A program made the position numbers and the translations under genes. From Dictyostelium discoideum (lineage: Eukaryota): a stretch of 64,000 nt of DNA. The stretch is taken from contig CM000150.2 in the NCBI GenBank assembly GCA_000004695.1, positions 1,472,001-1,536,000 on the forward strand, read 5' to 3'. The notes under the pieces were generated by a model. The model saw only the letters and a program-made list of their open reading frames with translations. It ran no database searches and was not told where the DNA came from. How positions within the stretch are numbered: position 1 is the first letter of the stretch; each line of letters starts with the position of its first letter. Of this stretch, positions 2,944-40,408 are shown in pieces.

Positions 2944-3175
2944 ATACCAATAATAACAGCAAAATGAATAAATGCAACTATAATATAGGATAAGAAATTG
3001 GATAGAGTTTATACCTTAATTAATTATTGATTTTTTTTTTTTTTTTTCCAAACTGGGTTTAATAACGCCATGTGAGAGCTATTATTATTATTTCTAATGG
3101 AAAGCAGTAATTACATTAGTTTGTTTGAGTTGAGATTGGAGATGGAATCATATGCAATAATCCAAAAAAAAAAAA
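2663..3175. repeat. Degenerate tandem duplication of two ~230-bp units. Each unit has an internal T-run and a terminal A-run.
   Basis: Unit A (~2663-2935) and unit B (~2941-3175) share blocks such as caaCTAtAATATAGGaTAAgAAATTgGATAgAGTTTATACcTTAATTA and GTTTGTTTGAGTTG(G/A)GATT at ~60-65% identity. Unit A carries TGATGAC right after its T-run. Confidence 0.4.
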
Positions 3176-3253
3176 TAAAAGATAAAAAATTAAAAATTAA
3201 AAAATTAAAAACTAATACACTATATATATATTAAACTATTATTATTTTATTTT

Positions 3254-6148
<2,895 letters not shown>

Positions 6149-6644
6149 TTTTATCTATCTACATGTGTGTGTTATCTTTTATTACATAATAAAATAAAAA
6201 AATGATGTGAAAAGAAAAAATAAAAAAAAAAAAAAAAAACTAAAATAAAATAAAATGAAATCTGAAAATAAAAAAAAAAAAATAAAAAGGTTATAAATTA
6301 AACGAATTTTTAAAAAAAAAAAAAAATAAAAAAAAAAATTAAAAAATTGCATCATGATTAAAATAAGTTTTTTTTTTTTGTTTTTTTAACACAATCCCAA
6401 ATGTTTTGAAAATGTTGTAATTGAAAATTTTTATATAGGAAAAAGTAAAAAAAATCATTACCAGAGTGTTAATTTTTAATCATTTTTTTATTTTTTTTTT
6501 GGCTGACTACCGCCATTTTTTTTTTTTTTCTCTACTCAAAATTATAAAATTTATTATTAATTTATATTTTTTAAAAATAAAATACAACCAAAATATAATT
6601 ATAAATTTATATTTTATTTTTTTTCTTTAAATTTAAATAAAAAA

Positions 6645-6854
6645 GGGGGTGAGGCGCACTCTCGTAAATCTCTGAAGTTGTGCAATACAGAGCGAATGCG
6701 TAGAGGTCGAATGATGCAAGCACCAAACATATGACCTCACCTCGAAGAAAAATAAGTTTAATCGAATATGCACATCAACGTGTGATGGCAGAAAGAGATT
6801 AAGCTTTTTAGAACAGATACTACACATGATCAAAGCGAGACGCTTCAAGAAGGT
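6645..6854 (-). ncRNA. U2: U2 spliceosomal snRNA gene, copy 1
   Basis: The reverse complement contains GATCATGTGTAGTATCTGTTCT (the U2 branch-point-interaction region GAUCAAGUGUAGUAUCUGUUCU), a Sm-site-like ATTTTTCTTCGAGG, and the 3' domain ACGCATTCGCTCTGTATTGCA...GTGCGCCTCACCCCC, which matches U2 ...ACGCAUCGACCUGGUAUUGCA...GGUGCACCC. It is followed by a T-run. The 5' and 3' ends are estimated by alignment to metazoan U2, give or take about 5 nt. Confidence 0.8.
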
Positions 6855-6908
6855 ACCTTTTCAAAATGAAAAAACTACTCTTTTGTATTTAAATATATAA
6901 TTTTTTAT

Positions 6909-6915
6909 TTATGGG
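6909..6915 (-). promoter_or_regulatory. DUSE-like snRNA upstream element (CCCATAA) about 57 bp upstream of the minus-strand U2 copy
   Basis: The reverse complement of ttatggg at 6909-6915 is CCCATAA. It is placed symmetrically to the element upstream of the + copy. Dictyostelium snRNA genes are known to carry a conserved upstream element near -60. Confidence 0.5.
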
Positions 6916-6957
6916 TTTTTTTCTTTTCGTGAAAATAGTGAAGTTAAAAATTTATGA

Positions 6958-6999
<42 letters not shown>

Positions 7000-7134
7000 T
7001 AAAATATTTTTAGAAAATTTTCTTAACTCAAATCATGGTGTTATTAATAATATTAAATGATGTATAAAAAAAAACTTTATTTTTATTTTTATTTTGAATA
7101 TTGTTTTTTTTTTTTTTTCAAGAATTCATGAGGA

Positions 7135-7141
7135 CCCATAA
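7135..7141 (+). promoter_or_regulatory. DUSE-like snRNA upstream element (gaCCCATAAaaa) about 60 bp upstream of the + U2 copy
   Basis: cccataa at 7135-7141 sits in a slightly GC-richer patch (gaattcatgaggacccataaaaa) within the AT-rich spacer. Confidence 0.5.
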
Positions 7142-7197
7142 AAATAAAAAGTTAATACTTTTAAATAAAAAAAGAAATAATTTCATTTTGAAAAGGT

Positions 7198-7407
7198 ACC
7201 TTCTTGAAGCGTCTCGCTTTGATCATGTGTAGTATCTGTTCTAGAAAGCTTAATCTCTTTCTGCCATCACACGTTGATGTGCATATTCGATTAAACTTAT
7301 TTTTCTTCGAGGTGAGGTCATATGTTTGGTGCTTGCATCATTCGACCTCTACGCATTCGCTCTGTATTGCACAACTTCAGAGATTTACGAGAGTGCGCCT
7401 CACCCCC
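7198..7407 (+). ncRNA. U2: U2 spliceosomal snRNA gene, copy 2, a perfect inverted duplicate of copy 1
   Basis: The same sequence as 6645..6854 lies on the + strand. The inverted repeat spans ~6621-6868 and 7184-7437. The two genes are transcribed divergently from a ~340-bp spacer. Confidence 0.8.
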
Positions 7408-7678
7408 TTTTTTTATTTAAATTTAAAGAAAAAAAAAAAAAAGTAATAATTTAATAACAAAATTTAAGAAATAAAATTAAATAAAAAATTAAATTTATTT
7501 ATTTATTTATTTATACATGAATAATAAAAATAAGAAAGGGAGATAAGAACCTGTTTTATTTATTTTTTATTTTTATTTTTTTTTTTTATTTTTTTTTTTA
7601 TTTAATCAATGTAAATGGATATATTGACTAGAGTCATCGTTTTAATTTATAATTTAATATTTATTATTATTTTTAATT

Positions 7679-8043
7679 TTATAAAAGCATTTTATTTGCA
7701 CACCAAATTCTTTGTAAAATATCATTTTGTACATCATTTAAAGAACTCCAAAGTTCTCTTTGAATTGCAGGTAAACCATTAACTTCTTTTCTTTCACAAG
7801 CGATTAATAGGTTGTTTAAGATTGCGATAGTTTCTTCAGACAATTCAGAACCTGCACTATATTGAGAATGTTGTTCATTTATATCATTTACTAATTTACT
7901 AAGTTGTGCTTGTGATTTTGAAAAACTATCTTGTAAAATATATAATAAAAATAATGATACACGTGTTTCAATTAAAATAAATGGATATAATGACATACTA
8001 ACTGATGATGGTAATATTGTATTATTATTTATATTATTATTTA

Positions 8044-8080
<37 letters not shown>

Positions 8081-8888
8081 GTTATTAATATCATTAAAAA
8101 AATTATTATGATTACTATTATTATTAATTTGATCAAAACTACTATTAGTTGTTGTATTTAGTAATGATAATTGATTCATTCTAGATTCTAATGGTTGTGT
8201 TGTTTCACCTGCAATATTTACAATTAAATCTAAATAATCACAAGCACCCTTATAATCCCATTCCATAATTTTACAATATGCTGCTTCTTTTAATGAGTTG
8301 ATTGCACTTATTGGACTTTCTGTCCTTTGAATTTCTGCTGCCTTTTGAAAATATTCTGCACCTTCTTCTAATTTATTTAATCTTTTTAATATTGATGCCA
8401 TTTCAAAATATAATGTACCCATTATACTAAATCTTTTATAATTTTGATAAATCTTTTTTTTTATAAAAGTAAATAAAAAAAATAAAAAAATTAATATTAA
8501 TAAATATATATATATATAATAATGATGTTTTTTTTTTTTTAAAATTTACTTTTATAGCTAATAAATAACAATTAATTGCTTCAGGTATATTCTCTTCAAA
8601 TGATATTATTTCAGATTCATTTGTTGAAATTTCATTTTCCCATATTAAATAACCAGCATCAATATAACATGAGGCTTCTGCTGATGATGAAGCTTTAATT
8701 GCTTGTTCACATCTACCAATTGATAGACAACAAAATGCTGCATATATATTATTACCTTCACGTTTAAATGAATTCATTACTTGTGTATATTGATCAACTG
8801 CTTCTGAATAATTTGGTTTCCTCATTGGAAACTTTTTTTTTTTTAATTTTTGTGATATTAATTTATAAGAATCTATTAAATGACTCAT
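7679..8888 (-). CDS. Soluble NSF attachment protein (SNAP) family, TPR-like, probably the gamma-SNAP-type paralogue
   Basis: There are two exons, complement(8550..8888) and complement(7679..8452), with a 97-bp intron at 8453..8549 (GTAAAT donor, AG acceptor, phase 0). The joined product reads ...DAGYLIWENE..EAINCYLLAIK|IYQNYKRFSIMGTLYFEMASILKRLNKLEEGAEYFQKAAEI... This aligns with alpha-SNAP [44 protein letters not shown]. A poly-N insertion lies in the middle. Confidence 0.65.
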
Positions 8889-9291: not shown

Positions 9292-9344
<53 letters not shown>

Positions 9345-9368
9345 CATTTAAAAAATAATAAATAAAGA

Positions 9369-11750
9369 ATGAATTTTAAAATTATATATTTTATAATTTT
9401 ATCAATAATAGTTTCATATTTTTCAAAGATTGGTATTGATTATTATTTTAGTAGTGATGAAATTAAAGAGAGATATTCATTATTTGAATATGTTGTAAAT
9501 GATCAAATAATAAAATTTGGTAGTAATAGAGATAGAGATCTTTTTGATAGATCACATTATAATGAAGAAGTATTTTATAATATAAAGATATCAAAAGAAG
9601 TTCAAGATGCACTTAGATATGGTAAACCAATCGTATCATTAGAGTCTACAATTATTTCACATGGTATGCCATTCCCACAGAATTATGAAACTGCATTGGA
9701 GGTTGAATCAATCGTTAGATCATATGGTGTTATTCCAGCAACTATTGCAATTTTAAATGGTACAATTCATATTGGATTAACCGAGAAAGAGATTCACTAT
9801 TTAGCAACGGTTGGTAAGGATGCAATTAAAACGTCACGTCGTGACATTGCCATGGTGACATCGATGGGTAAGACAGGATCTACCACGGTTTCAGCAACTA
9901 TTTTATTCTCAAATTTAGTGGGTATCAAAGTGTTTGTCACTGGTGGATTGGGTGGTGTTCATAGGGGTGCCGAAACAAGTTTAGATGTGAGTGCAGATTT
10001 AACAGAGTTGGGTAAGAATGGTGTTATGGTAGTTTCAGCAGGTGTAAAGAGTATATTGGATATTGGAAAGACTTTGGAATATTTAGAGACTCAAGGTGTT
10101 ACAGTGGTGACTTTTGGTTCTGATGAATTCCCAGCATTCTTTACAAAACATTCAGGTGTAAAGACACCAAATCGTTTGGATACCGTTGACCAATGTGCAA
10201 AACTTCTCTACTCAAATCAGTTACTTCAATTAAAGAGTGGCATGGTCGTTGCCGTGCCACCACGTGATAATGAACATTCTGAGCTCATTGACCGTGCAAT
10301 CAAAGAATCAATTGAACAATCAAAAGTAGATGGTATTTTGGGTAAAGATATTACACCCTATCTCTTAAAGAAAGTAAATGAAAAAACTGGTGGTAAATCA
10401 TTAGAATCAAATATTGAATTGGTTAAAAACAATGCTAGAATTGGTTCACAAATTTCTAAACATTATTATAATTTATTAAAAAATAAACAATCACCAACTA
10501 GTAGCACTACTACCATTAAAGGTGATGAATTAGTTTTCAACTATTTTGACCAACGAGTAAATACTTTTCTTAGAAATTATTTTAAAACATTATCAGCAGA
10601 GACTTTGTTATTAAATGGTCCAAATAAATTAAAAGGTTTAAATGGACCAAAACCAAATAAACAATTGGCTGATAATCATATTGAGTATGATATTGTGGTG
10701 GTTGGTGGTGCAGTGATCGATATGATTTCTCATCCATTTAAAGAGAGTGGTTTCCAAATGGAAACTTCAAATCCGGGTGCTATTTCAATTAAAATGGGTG
10801 GCGTTGGTCGTAATGTTGCAGAGGTATTATCAAGATTACAAATGAATTCATTGTTTATTAGTTTGGTTGGTGACGATGTTCACTCTGGTCTATTGATGGA
10901 ATCATTTCAAAAAATGAATTTATCATCCAATGGTGTTGGTATCAAGGTTGGTAGTAAAACTGCAATTTACAATGCAATTATGAATGATCGTGGTGATTTG
11001 GCAGTTGCAATAGCTCAAATGGATATTTTCGATGAGATTACACCTTCCTACATTTCAAAATTTGATTTAACCTCAAGTAAACTTTTAGTTTTCGATGGTA
11101 ATATTCCAATTGAATCAATGACTTATTTAGCTCAACTATCAAGATCAAAAGGTATTAAACTTTGGTTCGAACCAACAAGTGTCTATAAATCTTCAAAAAT
11201 CGTTGAATCATTCATTTTATCTTCAATTACCTATATTTCACCAAATAGAGATGAATTAATTAAAATTTCAAATGAAATTATTAAAAAAGGTTTAATTAAA
11301 TTTGAAAATATTATAAATAATGATATAAATGGTAATTAATTAAAATTTATTTATTTATTTAGATTTATTTATTATATATTTAATTTTTATTAATATTATT
11401 TATTTATTTATTTAGATTTAGAAAATATTAAAAAGCATAGTATAATTTTAATTGAATCTGGTATAAAATATATTATTACAAAGATGGGATCAAAAGGAGT
11501 ATTATTAGCTTATAAAAAAGATGATGGAGAATTTAAATTTGAATTATTTTCAGCACCAGAAGTACCAGATAACAAGATTGTAGATGTAACAGGTGCTGGT
11601 GATAGTTTAGTTGGTTGTACAATTTATTCAATATTACTTGGTCATAATTTAACAACTGCAATCCCCCAATATGGTACCCCTTGTGCAAAAGAAAGTTTAT
11701 TATCAACAAATCCAGTTTCACCAAATATTAAAATTTCTTTATTTAAATAA
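9369..11750 (+). CDS. Bifunctional pseudouridine-5'-phosphate glycosidase (PsuG/IndA-like) fused to a PfkB-family carbohydrate (pseudouridine) kinase
   Basis: Exon 1 is 9369..11331 and exon 2 is 11416..11750, with an 84-bp intron (GTAATT...TTTAG, phase 1). The N-terminal domain reads GKPIVSLESTIISHGMPFPQN...VFVTGGLGGVHRGAETSLDVSADL, the PsuG signature. The C-terminal domain reads DIVVVGGAVIDM...GGVGRNVA...DVTGAGDSLVG, the PfkB kinase signature. The first ~60 aa are hydrophobic and have no homology, so the start is uncertain. Confidence 0.7.
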
Positions 11751-34457: not shown

Positions 34458-35960
34458 TTTTTTTTTTTTTTTGATATAAATAAACTATTGTAGTATACAA
34501 TTAGTATGTTATTTTTATTTATTTATTTTAGGTTTTTTAATTTTTGTGAATTTAAAATGGTATGTTATTTTAGATTAGGTAATTAATAATTAATTGGTGG
34601 TGTAATTGTTGGAATTGGTTCATTAGTGTTTATGCTCCATTCTTTTTTAAATTTTTTGATTGTTTCGGACCATTGGGTTTCTTTTTGAGTTTTTGTGAGG
34701 TTGTTTTTAATTGAGTATTGGTTAAAGTTTGATAATGTTCTTGAATATTCCAATCTTTTTAGCTTGTGCCATTTTGATTTTAATATATCATAATCTAATG
34801 TTGTGTTGTTTATTTGGTTGTTCCAATTATCAATTGATTGAGTTATATTGATGTCAAATAATGATTTGCATAACCATATCCATATTTGGTGAATAACTAA
34901 TGAGATTATGTTCCAATATGCATGTGTTTTGACTAGATCAAGATTTGTGTTTATATAATTCCAGTTGAACCTGTATTTTTTATATTGTGCATTTTTTGCA
35001 AAATGAAAATTAATATTGATAGTTGGATCTGGTTTAAATGCTTTGTTGTTTATTTGTGGTTTATAAATGAGTGTGTATAATTTTGTTGTTTGGTTTTTTG
35101 TTAGTGACCAGTTTTTGTTTCCATTGCAATTTTTATATATAAAATATTTTAATTTGTCGTGGTTTATGAAGTTGATTGTGTGCTGACAATTGAAAAACAA
35201 ATGACCATAGGGGTCATTATTCATTTCATTTTTGCAAATGGGGCCAACTTTGTTGTGTAGATGATTAATTTGCATTGTATCACGGCCTTTTGGATCTTTT
35301 AATTTTTGAATTTTGACAAATAGTTGGTGGTATGTGTATTTCCATAATAGTTGTATTGATTGTTGGTGCGAAGTAAGAAGTAGATCTGAATATTTCTTGC
35401 CACCTCCGCCCATATTAAATTTAATATGGACACCACATAGTCTTTTGATTTGCATTGGTGATTGTTGAGTATTGTAGAGTAGATTTCTTTGAGTGTTGGT
35501 GGTAGTGAAATATTATTTGTGATTAATGTTTGAGAGGTTTGGTTTTTTATTAATATTGGTTGTAGGGTTTGAACTTTATCTTTTAGATGTCCAATTTGAG
35601 TTGCATAGTTTTCCCATTCTTTTTTAATTTTTATAAGGTATGGAGAAGAGATTGATTTGTTGATTATTTGATCCATCCAACTTATCATGTATATTGAATT
35701 GTTTGCAGATTTATGCATTTGTAAAAATCTGTTGTATATCCAAATCTTTTGAGCAACTTGTCGTAATTGTATATTCCAAAATACCCCAACCACCTTCTTT
35801 TAATGGTTTTAATGATCTATCATAACACATCAAAGGTATTTTTTCACGTGAATGGATGGTTAATGTGTTGTTTTCAATGGAATTGGTATTGAGAGAATTC
35901 ATAAACCATGAGATTAATTTATTAATTTGAATTTCTTCATCTTTTGTAAATTCTTCAAGT
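34458..35960 (-). mobile_element. 5'-truncated non-LTR (TRE3-type, tRNA-gene-targeted) retrotransposon fragment. It carries the ORF2 C-terminal Cys-rich region, the 3' UTR and the poly(A) tail.
   Basis: Minus-strand ORFs in three frames (35711..35902, 35299..35793, 34583..35455) encode a retroelement ORF2 C-terminus with a CKNEMNNDPYGHLFFNCQH cysteine motif. The overlap across frames shows frameshift decay. The 3' UTR is 34474-34582, and T16 at 34458-34473 is the poly(A) on the minus strand. The element lies ~80 bp downstream of the tRNA-Trp at 36042..36128, in the same orientation. It is flanked by the 17-bp direct repeat ttgttgggaatcgaacc (34441-34457 and 35994-36010). Confidence 0.6.
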
Positions 35961-35998: not shown

Positions 35999-36009
35999 GG
36001 AATCGAACC
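35999..36009 (-). promoter_or_regulatory. ex-B box (downstream B-box-like GGTTCGATTCC) ~33 bp 3' of the tRNA-Trp gene
   Basis: The minus strand reads ...TCAAAGGTTCGATTCCCAACAA. Dictyostelium tRNA genes commonly carry an external B box in the 3' flank. Confidence 0.5.
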
Positions 36010-36041: not shown

Positions 36042-36128
36042 AGACCCCTCAGGGAGTTGAACCCTGGACCAACTGCTAACTTCTAACGTTTTGGAGACAA
36101 TTACAATAAACCACTATGCTAAGGAGTC
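36042..36128 (-). tRNA. trnW-CCA: tRNA-Trp (anticodon CCA) with a 13-nt intron
   Basis: The reverse complement is GACTCCTTAGCATAGTGGTTTATTGTAATTGTCTCCAAAACGTTAGAAGTTAGCAGTTGGTCCAGGGTTCAACTCCCTGAGGGGTCT. The acceptor pairs GACTCCT with AGGGGTC, with one G-U. The D-loop is AGTGG. The anticodon stem pairs ATTGT with GCAGT, and the loop is C-U-CCA-A-[intron AACGTTAGAAGTT = plus 36078..36090]-A. The T-arm is CAGGG-TTCAACT-CCCTG. The discriminator is T, followed by a T7 terminator. Confidence 0.75.
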
Positions 36129-36400
36129 TTTGAAAATTCACTGGATGAAACACTTTGTTAACACCTCATTTTTTTCGGTGAAACACTATGTTATGGAGTC
36201 ATTAATTTTTATGTCAATAACATGCTGGAATTTAGCTGGCGAAAATTAAAATTGAAAACCAATTGGATGACTCACTTTCCTAAGCCCTCATTTTTTTGGG
36301 TGAAACACTATGTTAAGAAGTCATTACTTTTTATGTCAATAATATGCTGAAATTAAGCTGGCAAATATTAATATTATACCTAGTTATAATAATTACAAAA
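36129..36400 (-). repeat. About 2.3 tandem copies of a ~117-bp module immediately upstream of tRNA-Trp. Each module is the 5'-flank plus a degenerate copy of the first ~20 nt of the tRNA.
   Basis: Repeating blocks (plus strand) read gtgaaacactatgtta(t/a)g(g/a)agtcatta.tttttatgtcaataa(c/t)atgctg(g/a)aatt(t/a)agctggc(g/a)aaa(a/t)attaa.attgaaaaccaattggatga.(a/t)cactttg.taa(c/g).cctcatttttttgg. The subsequence acactatgtta.ggagtc mimics the tRNA 5' end ccactatgctaaggagtc. Confidence 0.55.
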
Positions 36401-36789
36401 AACAAATAGTTTTTTTTTTTAAAAAAAGAGGTATAAAAAAATTATATGGATTAATAATAATAAATTTTTTTGAATAACAATTAAATATTATTATTTTGGC
36501 GAATGCACATCACTTATTGAATTTCTTTTTTTATTTTTTATTTTTTTATATATACCCCATTGTAAAGCTTAATAAAGTAAAAAATATTAAATCCATTTAT
36601 CTAATTAATAGATGAAGTAAAAAAAAATTATATATCGTATAGTGATTTTTTAGTGTTCTATCTATACTAATAAATATTAATAATGAATATTAAAAATAAT
36701 TAAAATTAAATCATTGTTAAAAAAAAAAAAAAAATGAATTTAATCGTTCTGTTTTTTTTTTTTTAATTTTTATTTTCTCCAGCTAAATT

Positions 36790-37040
36790 CCAACATGTTA
36801 ATAGCTTAAAAAAATGAATGTATTAATTCTGTTTTTAGCTGGCAAAAATTAAAATTGAAAACCAACTGGATGGCACACTTTGCTAATGTCTCATTTTTTT
36901 AATTAGTTATCAACCTGAAAATAAACATAGTGGTTTATTGTATTTGTCTCCAAAAATGAGGGCTTAACAAAGTGTGCCATCCAGTTGGTTTTCAATTTTA
37001 ATTTTCGACAGCTAAAAACAGAATTAATACATTCATTTTT
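36790..37040. repeat. Inverted repeat of two ~90-bp module copies (~36805-36900 and 36945-37037). The central spacer holds a plus-oriented tRNA-Trp 5' fragment catagtggtttattgtatttgtctcc.
   Basis: The left arm reads ...gaatgtattaattctgtttttagctggcaaaaattaaaattgaaaaccaactggatggcacactttgctaa... The right arm reads ...ttaacaaagtgtgccatccagttggttttcaattttaattttcgacagctaaaaacagaattaatacattc... The arms are reverse complements of each other. Confidence 0.55.
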
Positions 37041-38298: not shown

Positions 38299-39350
38299 CA
38301 AGAAAAACAAGAAAAGTAGCATGAACAACAACCACAGCAACATGTAAATTAAAAAATAGCAAAACAAAATATTAGTAACTTTTTATAATATTAAAATGAA
38401 TAAAATCTGAATGTATGGTTTGAAATCTTATTTATATAAACTCTCAAGTAAATTTTTTAAAAAAAAAATACCAGAAAGGCAGAGGAAAACGAATAAAACT
38501 TTGGAGGTTAGGTTTTTTTTTTTTAAATATAAAATCAGAAGTAATTGTGATGGTAAAGATAATAAATCATTTGTTCAAAATATTCACATTATTAAGTTTT
38601 ATTTGATCTATTAAAACTATTTATCATTAATATTTTATTAAGCAATAATTATAAAAAAACAATCTTTTTTGATTTAAATATAGGTGAGAATTCTCATTTT
38701 ATCAAGTGGTTTTATATATGTTTTTTTATAAGATTAAATAATTAAATAATAAAATTATGAAATTAATTTTTTTTTTTTTTTTTTTTTTCAGCACATTGAC
38801 CCACGAAGGCTGAGTTTGAACAACAGAGGTCTTTTAAATTTTAATCTTGTTGGATTTTTTTTTTTTTTTAATATTGAATAATAAGTGTTTATCCATTAAA
38901 GCAAATAAACAATAACTAATAGTTTTAGTTATTCATTTTCTTTAATTTTAATATTCAAATAAGGAATTTTAATAGTGTAGTAACTAATTTTTATTATTAT
39001 TATTATTAATATTGTTATCTTTTTTTAAAATATCGAGTTTTTAGATATGTTAAATATTAAATAAATTAATTTAATAAATCAAATAATATGATTATAATTG
39101 ATTAGATGAAATGGTATGATTTGGAAGAATCAGTTGATTCTTGCAAGTTAATTATCTTAATAATAGTATTTGTTTAAGGAAATCGTTTGGGTCTTTAAAA
39201 TTGTTCTGATCTTTTGAAAGAGTTAATTTACATGTTTTTTTTTTTTTTTTTATATATAAATATATATTCTGGAAATCAAATTAATGTTAAATTGAATAAA
39301 TTTGTTGGGAATCGAACCTTTGATTTTAGAAAGTTTCTTAAAAAAATGAC

Positions 39351-39437
39351 AGACCCCTCAGGGAGTTGAACCCTGGACCAACTGCTAACTTCTAACGTTT
39401 TGGAGACAATTACAATAAACCACTATGCTAAGGAGTC
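39351..39437 (-). tRNA. trnW-CCA: tRNA-Trp (CCA), second copy, identical 87-nt gene with a 13-nt intron (39387..39399)
   Basis: It is identical in sequence to 36042..36128. It has the same 3' flank TGTCATTTTTTTAAGA(G/A)ACTTTCTAAAATCAAAGGTTCGATTCCCAACAAATTTATTCAATTTAACATTA. The ex-B box is at 39308..39318. Confidence 0.75.
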
Positions 39438-39904
39438 CTTGAAAAATCAATTGGATGAAACACTTTGCTAAGGCCTCAATTTTATTGGAAAACCCAAATT
39501 AATCAGAAAATTTCCAGATTTTTAACTTTTTAAAGTAAAATAAAAAATAGAAAGAAAATAAGATGAAAATTACAAACAACACCACAAATATTAAGCAACA
39601 CAAATGCCTACAAAAAATAAGCGAAATTGTGGATAAAACTCAAATAAAAAAAACAATTCAAATATGTCATCAACATCAATCACGAACCAGACGATAAAAT
39701 AAAAAAAGATTTAGAAAAAGTTTGGACAAAAAAGATGTTTAATCAAAAGTAATAATACAATTCAAAATTTGAAACAAAAAAAAAAAAAAAAAAAAAAAAA
39801 AAGTTAACTAACCCCTCTTTTAGAGACCCTGTAAAAAACTACAAATAAAATGAGATCAAGCAGGAGAAGCAACTAATAATTGCGTTATCCAATTCAAAAA
39901 AAAA

Positions 39905-40090
39905 AAAAAAAAAAAAGCCTCATTTTTTTGGAAACAAATACAATTACAATAAACCACTATGCTAAGGAGTCCTTGAAAACCAACTGGATGACACACTTTG
40001 CCAAGGTCTCATTTTTTGGGGTGAAACACTGTGCCAAGGAGTCATTACTTTTTATGTCAATAACATGCTGGAATCTAGCTGGCGAAAAAT
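39905..40090 (-). repeat. Module repeat plus a truncated tRNA-Trp 5' fragment (32 nt at 39940..39971), an orphan piece of the tRNA-Trp upstream repeat
   Basis: acaattacaataaaccactatgctaaggagtc is the reverse complement of the first 32 nt of tRNA-Trp. It is followed by the module cttgaaaaccaactggatgacacactttgccaaggtctcattttttggggtgaaacactgtgccaaggagtcattactttttatgtcaataacatgctggaatctagctggcgaaaaat. Confidence 0.55.
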
Positions 40091-40121
40091 AAAAAATAAA
40101 AAAAAACAGAATGATTACTTT

Positions 40122-40158
<37 letters not shown>

Positions 40159-40408
40159 CAAGGATTTAATTTTAATTATTTTTAATATTTATTAGTATAG
40201 ATAGAATACTAAAAAAATAATCAATATGATACAGAATTTTTTTTATTTTTTTGATGTCAAATTTGACGATGTTTTAATCACAAAAAATATCTTTTGAAAA
40301 AAAAAAAAAAAATCTTTTTTTTTTTTTTATTTTTTACTCACCAATTTTCTTTTTTTTTTATTTATAAATAATTTTTATAAACAAAAAAAAAAAAAAAAAG
40401 AAAAAGAA

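Follow-up and report, generated by a model that had tools for sequence, protein, structure and literature searches.

Why should partial copies of a tRNA-Trp gene be arrayed beside the intact gene in Dictyostelium discoideum, and what kind of sequence are they? The repeats in question lie at 36129-37040 of the window (the whole stretch of 64,000 nucleotides analyzed, with a GC content of 23%). A first-pass annotation described them as modules made of the tRNA 5' flank plus a fragment of the tRNA 5' end. We analyzed the repeats within the window and at the syntenic locus from eight other assemblies, which was retrieved via the SGL protein cluster.

Two tRNA-Trp(CCA) genes of identical sequence are encoded on the minus strand. 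Copy 1 (36042-36128; 87 nt, including a ~14-nt intron that follows the anticodon loop) was identified by ARAGORN and by Rfam model RF00005 (44.8 bits), and copy 2 (39351-39437) by ARAGORN and Rfam. Copy 2, together with its 3' flank and the segment referred to below as U, shares 95% identity with copy 1 across 212 bp (blastn). The tRNA-plus-array block is present twice at a spacing of 3.3 kb, and a 288-codon ORF is located between the two tRNA genes. An external B box, GGTTCGATTCC, occurs 33 nt 3' of each gene (35999-36009 on the minus strand for copy 1, and the paralogous box at 39308-39318 for copy 2), and both boxes match the consensus GTTCRAnYC (PMC3159450). When the repeat region was scanned, the B-box consensus was confined to the two tRNA-Trp genes and their external B boxes. 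The gene adjoining the repeats encodes a protein that is 99% identical to AX4 DDB_G0268130, an SGL/GH162 protein. The DDB_G number falls in a range that would correspond to chromosome 1.

A tandem array was identified upstream of copy 1 (36142-36375; period 122, 1.9 copies, 85% matches, score 356 in TRF). The two 122-bp units are 84% identical to each other over 124 nt (blastn, E = 2e-33). The repeats are far above chance expectation, and module sequence is confined to 36.1-40.3 kb within the 64-kb window (blastn). Thus, tandem modules upstream of copy 1 are present as first described, although their period is 122 bp and not ~117 bp; the ~2.3 copies originally counted are reached when the 5' end that belongs to the tRNA itself is included. 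Each 122-bp module consists of V (51 nt), t' (33 nt) and U (39 nt), and the order on the tRNA-sense (minus) strand is V2-t'2-U2-V1-t'1-U1-tRNA. U1 (36129-36167, minus strand) comprises a decayed tRNA 5' unit, GAGGTGTTAACAAAGTGTTTCATCC, and the native -8 to -1 flank, TTTTCAAA (shuffle p = 0.001 against the 34-nt unit consensus); the full U segment reads GAGGTGTTAACAAAGTGTTTCATCCAGTGAATTTTCAAA. t'1 (36168-36200, minus strand) is a short-form tRNA-5' unit, GACTCCATAACATAGTGTTTCACCGAAAAAAAT, with the tRNA-like fragment GACTCCATAACATAGTG (E = 4e-4 in an nhmmer search with a wild-strain HMM), and is followed by V1 (36201-36251, minus strand). The second repeat (36252-36375, minus strand; 122-124 bp, TRF and blastn) is made up of U2 (36252-36289), t'2 (36290-36322; tRNA-like fragment GACTTCTTAACATAGTG, nhmmer E = 2.7e-7) and V2 (36323-36375). 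A degraded fragment of the tRNA 5' end, as had been noticed from the sequence initially, is therefore found in each module.

Wild D. discoideum L002 and L006 have two tRNA-Trp genes, as in the window, and simple arrays. These arrays contain up to 7 head-to-tail copies of a 33-36-nt unit, GACTCCTTAGCATAGTGTTTCACCTAAAAAAAGAT, which takes the form GACTCCTTAGCATAGTGTTTCACCTAAAAAAA(G)AT. In L002, TRF reported one array at 9342-9570 (35 nt x 6.7 copies, 84%, score 298) and a second one abutting the gene (36 nt x 2.8 copies). One to three wild units directly abut the tRNA-Trp genes. The wild unit consists of tRNA nt 1 to ~22, an anticodon-loop-like remnant and an A-run. Its match to the tRNA extends over the first ~17-22 nt (17 in the consensus, and 22 of 22 in the gene-adjacent L002 unit). 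An HMM trained solely on wild-strain units was then run on the window using nhmmer, and it matched three t' units, three tRNA 5' ends and one copy of U (U_c2). The t' segment of the window is the same unit as is found in the wild-strain 33-36-nt arrays.

The segment U, which had been taken for the flank of the tRNA gene, also aligns to this unit. Five of the six copies of U beat shuffled sequences in alignment to the unit consensus (p 0.0002-0.02), and U2 was marginal (p = 0.07). The best-preserved copy, U_c2 (39438-39477, minus strand; GAGGCCTTAGCAAAGTGTTTCATCCAATTGATTTTTCAAG), matches CCTTAGCAAAGTGTTTCA at 17 of 18 positions (nhmmer E = 0.008). U ends with the native -8 to -1 flank, TTTTCAA(A/G). 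Given the alignment of U to the unit consensus and the 17/18 match of U_c2, we infer that the "5' flank" is an older copy of the tRNA 5' end. Thus, the first-pass annotation was right that part of the tRNA-Trp 5' end was duplicated repeatedly, along with sequence next to it, but this neighboring sequence is not simply flank. Derivation of V from the tRNA is marginal; the 3' 32 nt of V1 are possibly another decayed unit (shuffle p ~0.03 against the unit). V-like sequence is found at the distal array end in L002, L006 and L005. As t' and U are tRNA-derived and differ in decay, and are combined with V, the 122-bp module is a higher-order repeat with sub-units of different ages. The fragments have the features of tRNA pseudogene fragments: similarity to the parent (nhmmer, blastn), and a missing B box and 3' half. 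We also considered U as a degenerate tRNA 3' half, based on a common CAGTTGGT, and rejected this because the alignment to the 5' unit is much better.

A related array is associated with copy 2. The region 39917-40094 (minus strand) aligns over 155 nt, at 88% identity, with V1-t'1-U1-tRNA(1-32) of copy 1 (blastn; nhmmer E = 2e-7 and 5.5e-5). It includes a long-form unit (39917-39971, minus strand), in which tRNA nt 1-32 are 100% identical at 39940-39971, followed on the same strand by U_o (39972-40010), the short unit t'_o (40011-40043) and V_o (40044-40094). This sequence was initially reported at 39905-40090 as an orphan copy with a 32-nt tRNA fragment. It does have that fragment and belongs to the same repeat family, but it is not an orphan: on sequence grounds it belongs to the copy-2 array, whose distal part was split off by insertion of the retrotransposon TRE5-A. 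A 5'-truncated, 430-bp TRE5-A remnant (39487-39916, plus strand) retains the 3' B-module, the C-module and poly(A) (39896-39916). A target-site duplication of 14 bp, which is imperfect, borders it on both sides (GCCTCAATTTTATT, 39473-39486, and GCCTCATTTTTTTG, 39917-39930). Copy 2 before the insertion was reconstructed as Y-V-t'-U-t(long, nt 1-~40)-U-tRNA. The insertion is clearly later than the t-U junction.

The identity of the inserted element is supported by several features. Its 5' end is 50 bp from +1 of tRNA copy 2, in head-to-head orientation, and TRE5-A integrates ~50 bp upstream of tRNA genes, head-to-head (PMC3159450). The length of the remnant agrees with the published B-module (~290 bp) and C-module (134-137 bp; PMC3159450). 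The remnant is 90% identical to L001 8246-8682 (L001 and L004 are from GCA_054883475.1, of the same lineage). The last 54 nt of the L001 copy fold into three stems, and T15, C26, A35 and C38, counted from the 3' end, are all present (4/4 bases at offset 0). Precisely these bases and stems of the TRE5-A.1 C-module were the targets of mutation in Siol et al., 2011 (PMC3159450). In the window copy, stem I has lost 6 nt; the register is shifted as a result, and of the four bases only T15 and C26 still match. The same B+C sequence occurs in L005, where it is preceded by an A-run and by the end of an ORF of 507 codons; the N-terminus of this ORF product matches the final part of Pfam RVT_1. Thus, from the C-module stems and bases, the length, the 50-bp distance and the orientation, we conclude that 39487-39916 is a 5'-truncated TRE5-A. 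A protein search with a 44-aa ORF in the B-module, aimed at TRE5-A ORF1, returned no matches.

In L001, two elements (A and I) were at one stage distinguished. They are now treated as one 5'-truncated TRE5-A, because the order in L005 (ORF2 end, A-run, B+C) is continuous with the 507-aa reverse-transcriptase ORF. Separately, a TRE5-A insertion destroyed tRNA-Trp copy 1 in GCA_054883475.1, and its spacing is as expected if the external B box directed it there.

Beyond the copy-1 array, we identified a palindrome of 231 bp (36810-37040). Its 89-nt arms (36810-36898 and 36952-37040) are 93% complementary and are separated by a 53-nt spacer. Each arm carries Z, the start of V, and U, and the spacer contains tRNA nt 11-40 on the plus strand (36926-36955; 29/30 identical, blastn). 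This agrees with the original description of head-to-head inverted modules with a truer tRNA fragment in the spacer, except that ~250 bp had been claimed; the modules are of the same family as the array. Adjoining the palindrome on its left, 36620-36817 (plus strand) duplicates, in inverted orientation, the array of copy 2 at its distal end (Y + Z + V; 40042-40244 reversed; blastn 73.5%, 219 nt, E = 1e-36). Its source is the SGL-proximal end of that array. The palindrome is restricted to AX4-type assemblies and is absent from L002, L005 and L006. An inverted segmental duplication in the lab-strain lineage appears to have produced it. The possibility that the palindrome is thug-S was considered and rejected, as thug-S is described as an intron-containing DNA transposon.

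The number of units and their arrangement differ in every lineage sampled (window/L001, L002, L006 and L005). The tandem array is absent, and there is a single tRNA-Trp upstream of SGL, in D. firmibasis, D. citrinum, D. dimigraforme and one D. cf. discoideum. In D. firmibasis, a single tRNA-like 5' fragment does lie ~65 nt upstream, in inverted orientation, and was missed by the unit HMM. No tRNA was found at the syntenic locus of D. purpureum. L005, from a related species (D. cf. discoideum), has five copies of a different unit that consists of tRNA nt 1-47, a common 30-nt sequence (X) and a T-run. X is an unrelated sequence, and the breakpoint, a different one, is also in the intron region. 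This separate family means that propagation of tRNA-Trp 5' fragments at this locus is either recurrent or old.

We consider it likely that the repeats are a locus-specific, non-mobile minisatellite with higher-order structure that grew from the tRNA-Trp(CCA) 5' end by local DNA duplication, and that they are debris. By locus-specific, we mean that the repeats were not seen elsewhere in the 64 kb and about ten syntenic 20-kb loci. The basic unit of 33-40 nt would comprise the last native 5'-flank bases, tRNA nt 1-~22 (~40 in long forms) and an A-run. The founding event may have been replication slippage or unequal exchange between two A-runs, one of them 7-15 nt (or ~45 nt) upstream of the gene and the other within CCAAAA at the anticodon loop/intron start, and the duplicated stretch would reach from the flank to about nt 40. 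This model is suggested by the form of the junctions, as every junction from t to the next unit reads ...CC(A)n(G)AT/GA... (the slash marks the junction), and by the native flank, in which every species examined has an A-run at -7 to -15. A-runs at junctions are weak evidence for the mechanism because such runs are very common in a 23% GC genome. Furthermore, two breakpoints within a 14-nt intron hint at a non-random process that is not predicted by simple slippage.

Subsequent expansion and reshuffling may have involved unequal sister-chromatid exchange, internal deletion (long to short form), template switching and gene conversion from the live gene (as the 22/22 match of the gene-adjacent L002 unit might indicate). 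Copies of V, t' and U of different decay would have come to form the 122-bp higher-order unit, which would then have been duplicated again. One piece would have been duplicated in inverted orientation, giving rise to the palindrome. TRE5-A later landed in the copy-2 array and split it. Array units are identical between two lab-lineage assemblies, so instability is not visible on short time scales, which counts against the local-duplication model. tRNA genes are fork-pause sites in yeast, and protein-bound Pol III genes, acting as fork barriers, may plausibly have been the trigger. Two reports describe duplications, deletions and inverted copy-number variants that are induced by replication barriers (PMC12151478, PMC10766183). 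Events of the kind described there might in principle provide a mechanism for the tandem repeats and the palindrome beside a Pol III gene that is bound by protein and strongly transcribed.

Other origins would give TRE5-A a direct role. The first-pass annotation raised the possibility that the modules are a TRE5 A/B-module, but the analysis lends this no support, and we consider it extremely unlikely that they are terminal (A/B) modules of TRE5-A or of another annotated tRNA-targeting element. The modules start ~45-50 bp upstream of the tRNA, where TRE5 elements land, a genuine TRE5-A remnant occurs in the same region, and A-modules are known as repeated (PMC3159450). However, no blastn match was found between the B and C modules of the remnant (the comparison covers B + C) and either 36129-37040 or 39917-40094, and the period is 122 bp, as compared to 200 bp for the A-module (PMC3159450). 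The units are in tRNA-sense orientation and lack an adjacent B-module/ORF1, poly(A) and a target-site duplication, their content is demonstrably derived from tRNA-Trp, and different, simpler arrays occupy the same place in wild strains. Alternatively, the units could be a by-product of TRE5-A integration, in which a long staggered cut (-48 to about +40) or abortive target-primed reverse transcription generated a giant target-site duplication and left an A-tract. We regard this as quite improbable, despite the fact that the U-plus-long-unit period (~85-90 bp) begins at the canonical TRE5-A site, that target-site alterations are frequent at TRE5-A integrations (PMC3159450), and that four independent TRE5-A insertions occurred in these tRNA-Trp arrays across strains. 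The A-tract is on the wrong strand for the poly(A) of a head-to-head TRE5-A, the period in wild strains is 35 nt and not ~90 nt, and the copy-2 TRE5-A has an ordinary 14-bp duplication and postdates the t-U junction. It is also unlikely that the units passed through RNA, with an oligo(A)-tailed 5' fragment of pre-tRNA-Trp (unspliced or aborted, extending from the transcription start to the anticodon loop/intron) reverse transcribed by TRE enzymes, inserted beside the gene in a SINE-like manner, and later amplified in tandem. Such a pathway would account for units that start within 2-3 nt of tRNA +1, for long forms that end in the anticodon loop/intron, for the A-run after every unit and for the location of the breakpoints of two lineages, both in the intron. 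In addition, the TRE5-A reverse transcriptase is active at exactly this place. Yet the A-run is already present in native flanks, the units point the other way from TRE5-A, which is strictly head-to-head (PMC3159450), and there are no target-site duplications or dispersed copies in the 64-kb window and ~200 kb of syntenic loci. According to Siol et al., D. discoideum has no processed pseudogenes, and retrotransposition depends on the C-module hairpin (PMC3159450). The L005 form contains intron bases and thus did not derive from a cleaved 5' exon. Examined as potential tRNA-derived SINEs, the units lack the internal B box; one long unit has a perfect A box, whereas that of the other units is degenerate.

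The remaining question in weighing these readings is whether the repeats do anything, as tRNA-Trp promoter or insulator elements or as a small-RNA hairpin gene. Folded as RNA, the palindrome is predicted to form a near-perfect 89-bp hairpin (-118 kcal/mol, z = -17.6), and U-like sequence adjoins the tRNA in the AX4 type and in D. cf. discoideum. However, wild D. discoideum has a different unit in place of the proximal flank, and sister species have an unrelated flank, while the tRNA is 98-100% identical; neither wild strains nor sister species have U next to the tRNA. The palindrome occurs only in the AX4 lineage. All matches of Rfam miRNA models to the palindrome were below gathering scores and represent generic hairpin resemblance. 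The 9-13-mers of its arms had no match in the miRNA supplementary tables of PMC4894637 and PMC6161686 (a weak test). The Rfam tRNA model, run over the repeat region, found the two tRNA-Trp genes and no array unit. Thus, the absence of a B box from the units, their non-detection by the tRNA covariance model and a proximal flank that varies while the tRNA is identical make a function unlikely. We assign a functional role a low probability, comparable to that of the integration by-product, and found no support for the promoter, insulator and small-RNA roles that were proposed at the outset. Judging from the sequence, the function of the repeats is probably nil, and fragments without the B box and 3' half are most likely inert pseudogene debris.

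If the repeats are a minisatellite, as we favor, they resemble other minisatellites and VNTRs in their head-to-tail 33-40-nt units, strain variability, higher-order 122-bp unit and non-coding nature. They differ in that the unit is the 5' end of an adjacent, still-functional tRNA gene, and in that the array abuts this gene. A partial tRNA gene copy beside an intact one, as here, is also a feature of bacterial attL/attR sites, but there the 3' part is duplicated once by site-specific recombination of an integrating element, whereas here the 5' part is duplicated many times and mostly with no element between. The association of a tRNA-Trp gene with repetitive DNA was reportedly noted by Peffley and Sogin in 1981. 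The arrays share with TRE5-A (DRE) integration sites a niche about 50 bp upstream of a tRNA gene, and TRE5-A is found inside the copy-2 array, but the modules have no TRE5-A B/C similarity, poly(A) or target-site duplication and are in tRNA-sense orientation. Entamoeba has tRNA gene arrays with intergenic short tandem repeats, and these similarly place amoebozoan tRNA genes amid strain-variable tandem repeats (PMC2652664). Whole tRNA genes are arrayed genome-wide in Entamoeba, with microsatellite-like repeats, in contrast to the partial 5' ends found here at one known locus (PMC2652664).

We found no earlier description of tRNA-fragment arrays in Dictyostelium in the literature searched, and six module and retroelement sequence strings had no match in a full-text literature search. 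A protein search for further copies using a 54-aa ORF read through the modules gave no matches. Exact scans with tRNA-Trp 5'-half strings gave no match in metagenome contigs or in bacterial and archaeal genome contigs. A 19-mer from the unit matched one metagenome contig; this was dismissed as a chance match in a 60% GC bacterial contig.

A more general proposal is that fork stalling by Pol III/TFIIIB-TFIIIC makes Dictyostelium tRNA genes seed polymorphic minisatellites from their own 5' ends, with breakpoints in the anticodon-loop/intron region recurring across independent lineages, and that the AX4 palindrome perhaps gives rise to small RNAs with tRNA-Trp 5' sequence. We view this as doubtful. 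If true, it would represent a general, previously undescribed form of genome instability driven by tRNA genes, which are already landing pads for retrotransposons.

The locus is a further case of sequence types that are already known (minisatellite, pseudogene fragments and retrotransposon target site) and not a new biological system. It is relevant to annotation, as an annotator could take these repeats for modules of a transposon, for clusters of tRNA pseudogenes or for regulatory flanks, and what appeared to be a conserved tRNA 5' flank here consists of older copies of the gene's own 5' end. Given that it is structurally unstable and strain-variable, the locus may serve as a marker for typing D. 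discoideum strains. For TRE5-A biology, it is of interest that the element has landed repeatedly inside such arrays. The arrays also lend themselves to studying whether slippage and template switching in Dictyostelium are promoted by tRNA genes to which Pol III is bound.

We identified a 5'-truncated copy of TRE5-A, a tRNA-targeting retrotransposon, inside tRNA-Trp copy 1 in L001, the syntenic locus of a second assembly of the same laboratory lineage (GCA_054883475.1). The 700 bp insert (L001 7981-8681) consists of the end of ORF2, an A-run, and the B and C modules, and replaces nucleotides 17-36 of the tRNA gene (window 36093-36112); the assembly is otherwise near-identical to the window. The interrupted gene was not detected by ARAGORN. 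The external B box (window 35999-36009, minus strand) lies 105 bp downstream of the poly(A) junction of the insert and the internal B box only ~51 bp from it. Published distances for TRE5-A targeting directed by the external B box are 108-127 bp, and thus the insertion fits this mode of targeting. A solitary B-box core match, GTTCAAACC, within the ORF downstream of copy 1 (35566-35574, minus strand), is probably due to chance.

Across 12.2 kb, the window and L001 differ by ~13 base substitutions, nine of which are concentrated at the centre of the palindrome (window 36887-36967). The L001 version of the centre resembles the V segment and the tRNA more closely than does that of the window. The cluster could reflect gene conversion, mutation associated with a hairpin, or sequencing error in one of the assemblies. 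Elsewhere in the window, two U2 snRNA genes (Rfam RF00004, 91 and 95 bits) are arranged divergently, head to head, at 6649-6856 (minus strand) and 7196-7403 (plus strand).

At the syntenic locus L008 (D. cf. discoideum, GCA_054859235.1), the tRNA-Trp gene has downstream of it, in the same orientation, a full-length non-LTR retrotransposon (3026-7356; ORF1 of 296 aa, ORF2 of 1096 aa with RVT_1). This arrangement is the orientation and position expected for a TRE3-type element. The AT-rich DNA separating array pieces carries a recurring motif, TGTAACGAAAGTGGTC, in L005 (D. cf. discoideum, GCA_054859205.1; ~7290-7330 and ~8380-8400) and in wild D. discoideum (L002 ~5640-5700). It is partly arranged as inverted pairs (TGTAACG...CGTTACA), and may be the terminus of a small transposon.

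L005 also carries five chimeras in which tRNA-Trp nucleotides 1-47 are joined to a common stretch of ~30 nt, TTAGCTTATCACCCAAGAAGCAAGACACA, and then a T-run (2176-2338 and 7336-8486). Three are located in tandem units of ~550 bp, and all share TTGCCTCC in place of TTGTCTCC. These chimeras are a separate family with a different intron breakpoint. In D. firmibasis (L003 9436-9540), an inverted tRNA-Trp-like 5' fragment, CTTAGCATAGTGGTTT, with a B-box-like GGTTCAAGTCT after it, is found ~65 nt upstream of the only tRNA-Trp gene. The Rfam tRNA model does not recognize this fragment, which may represent a head-to-head partner gene that has decayed.
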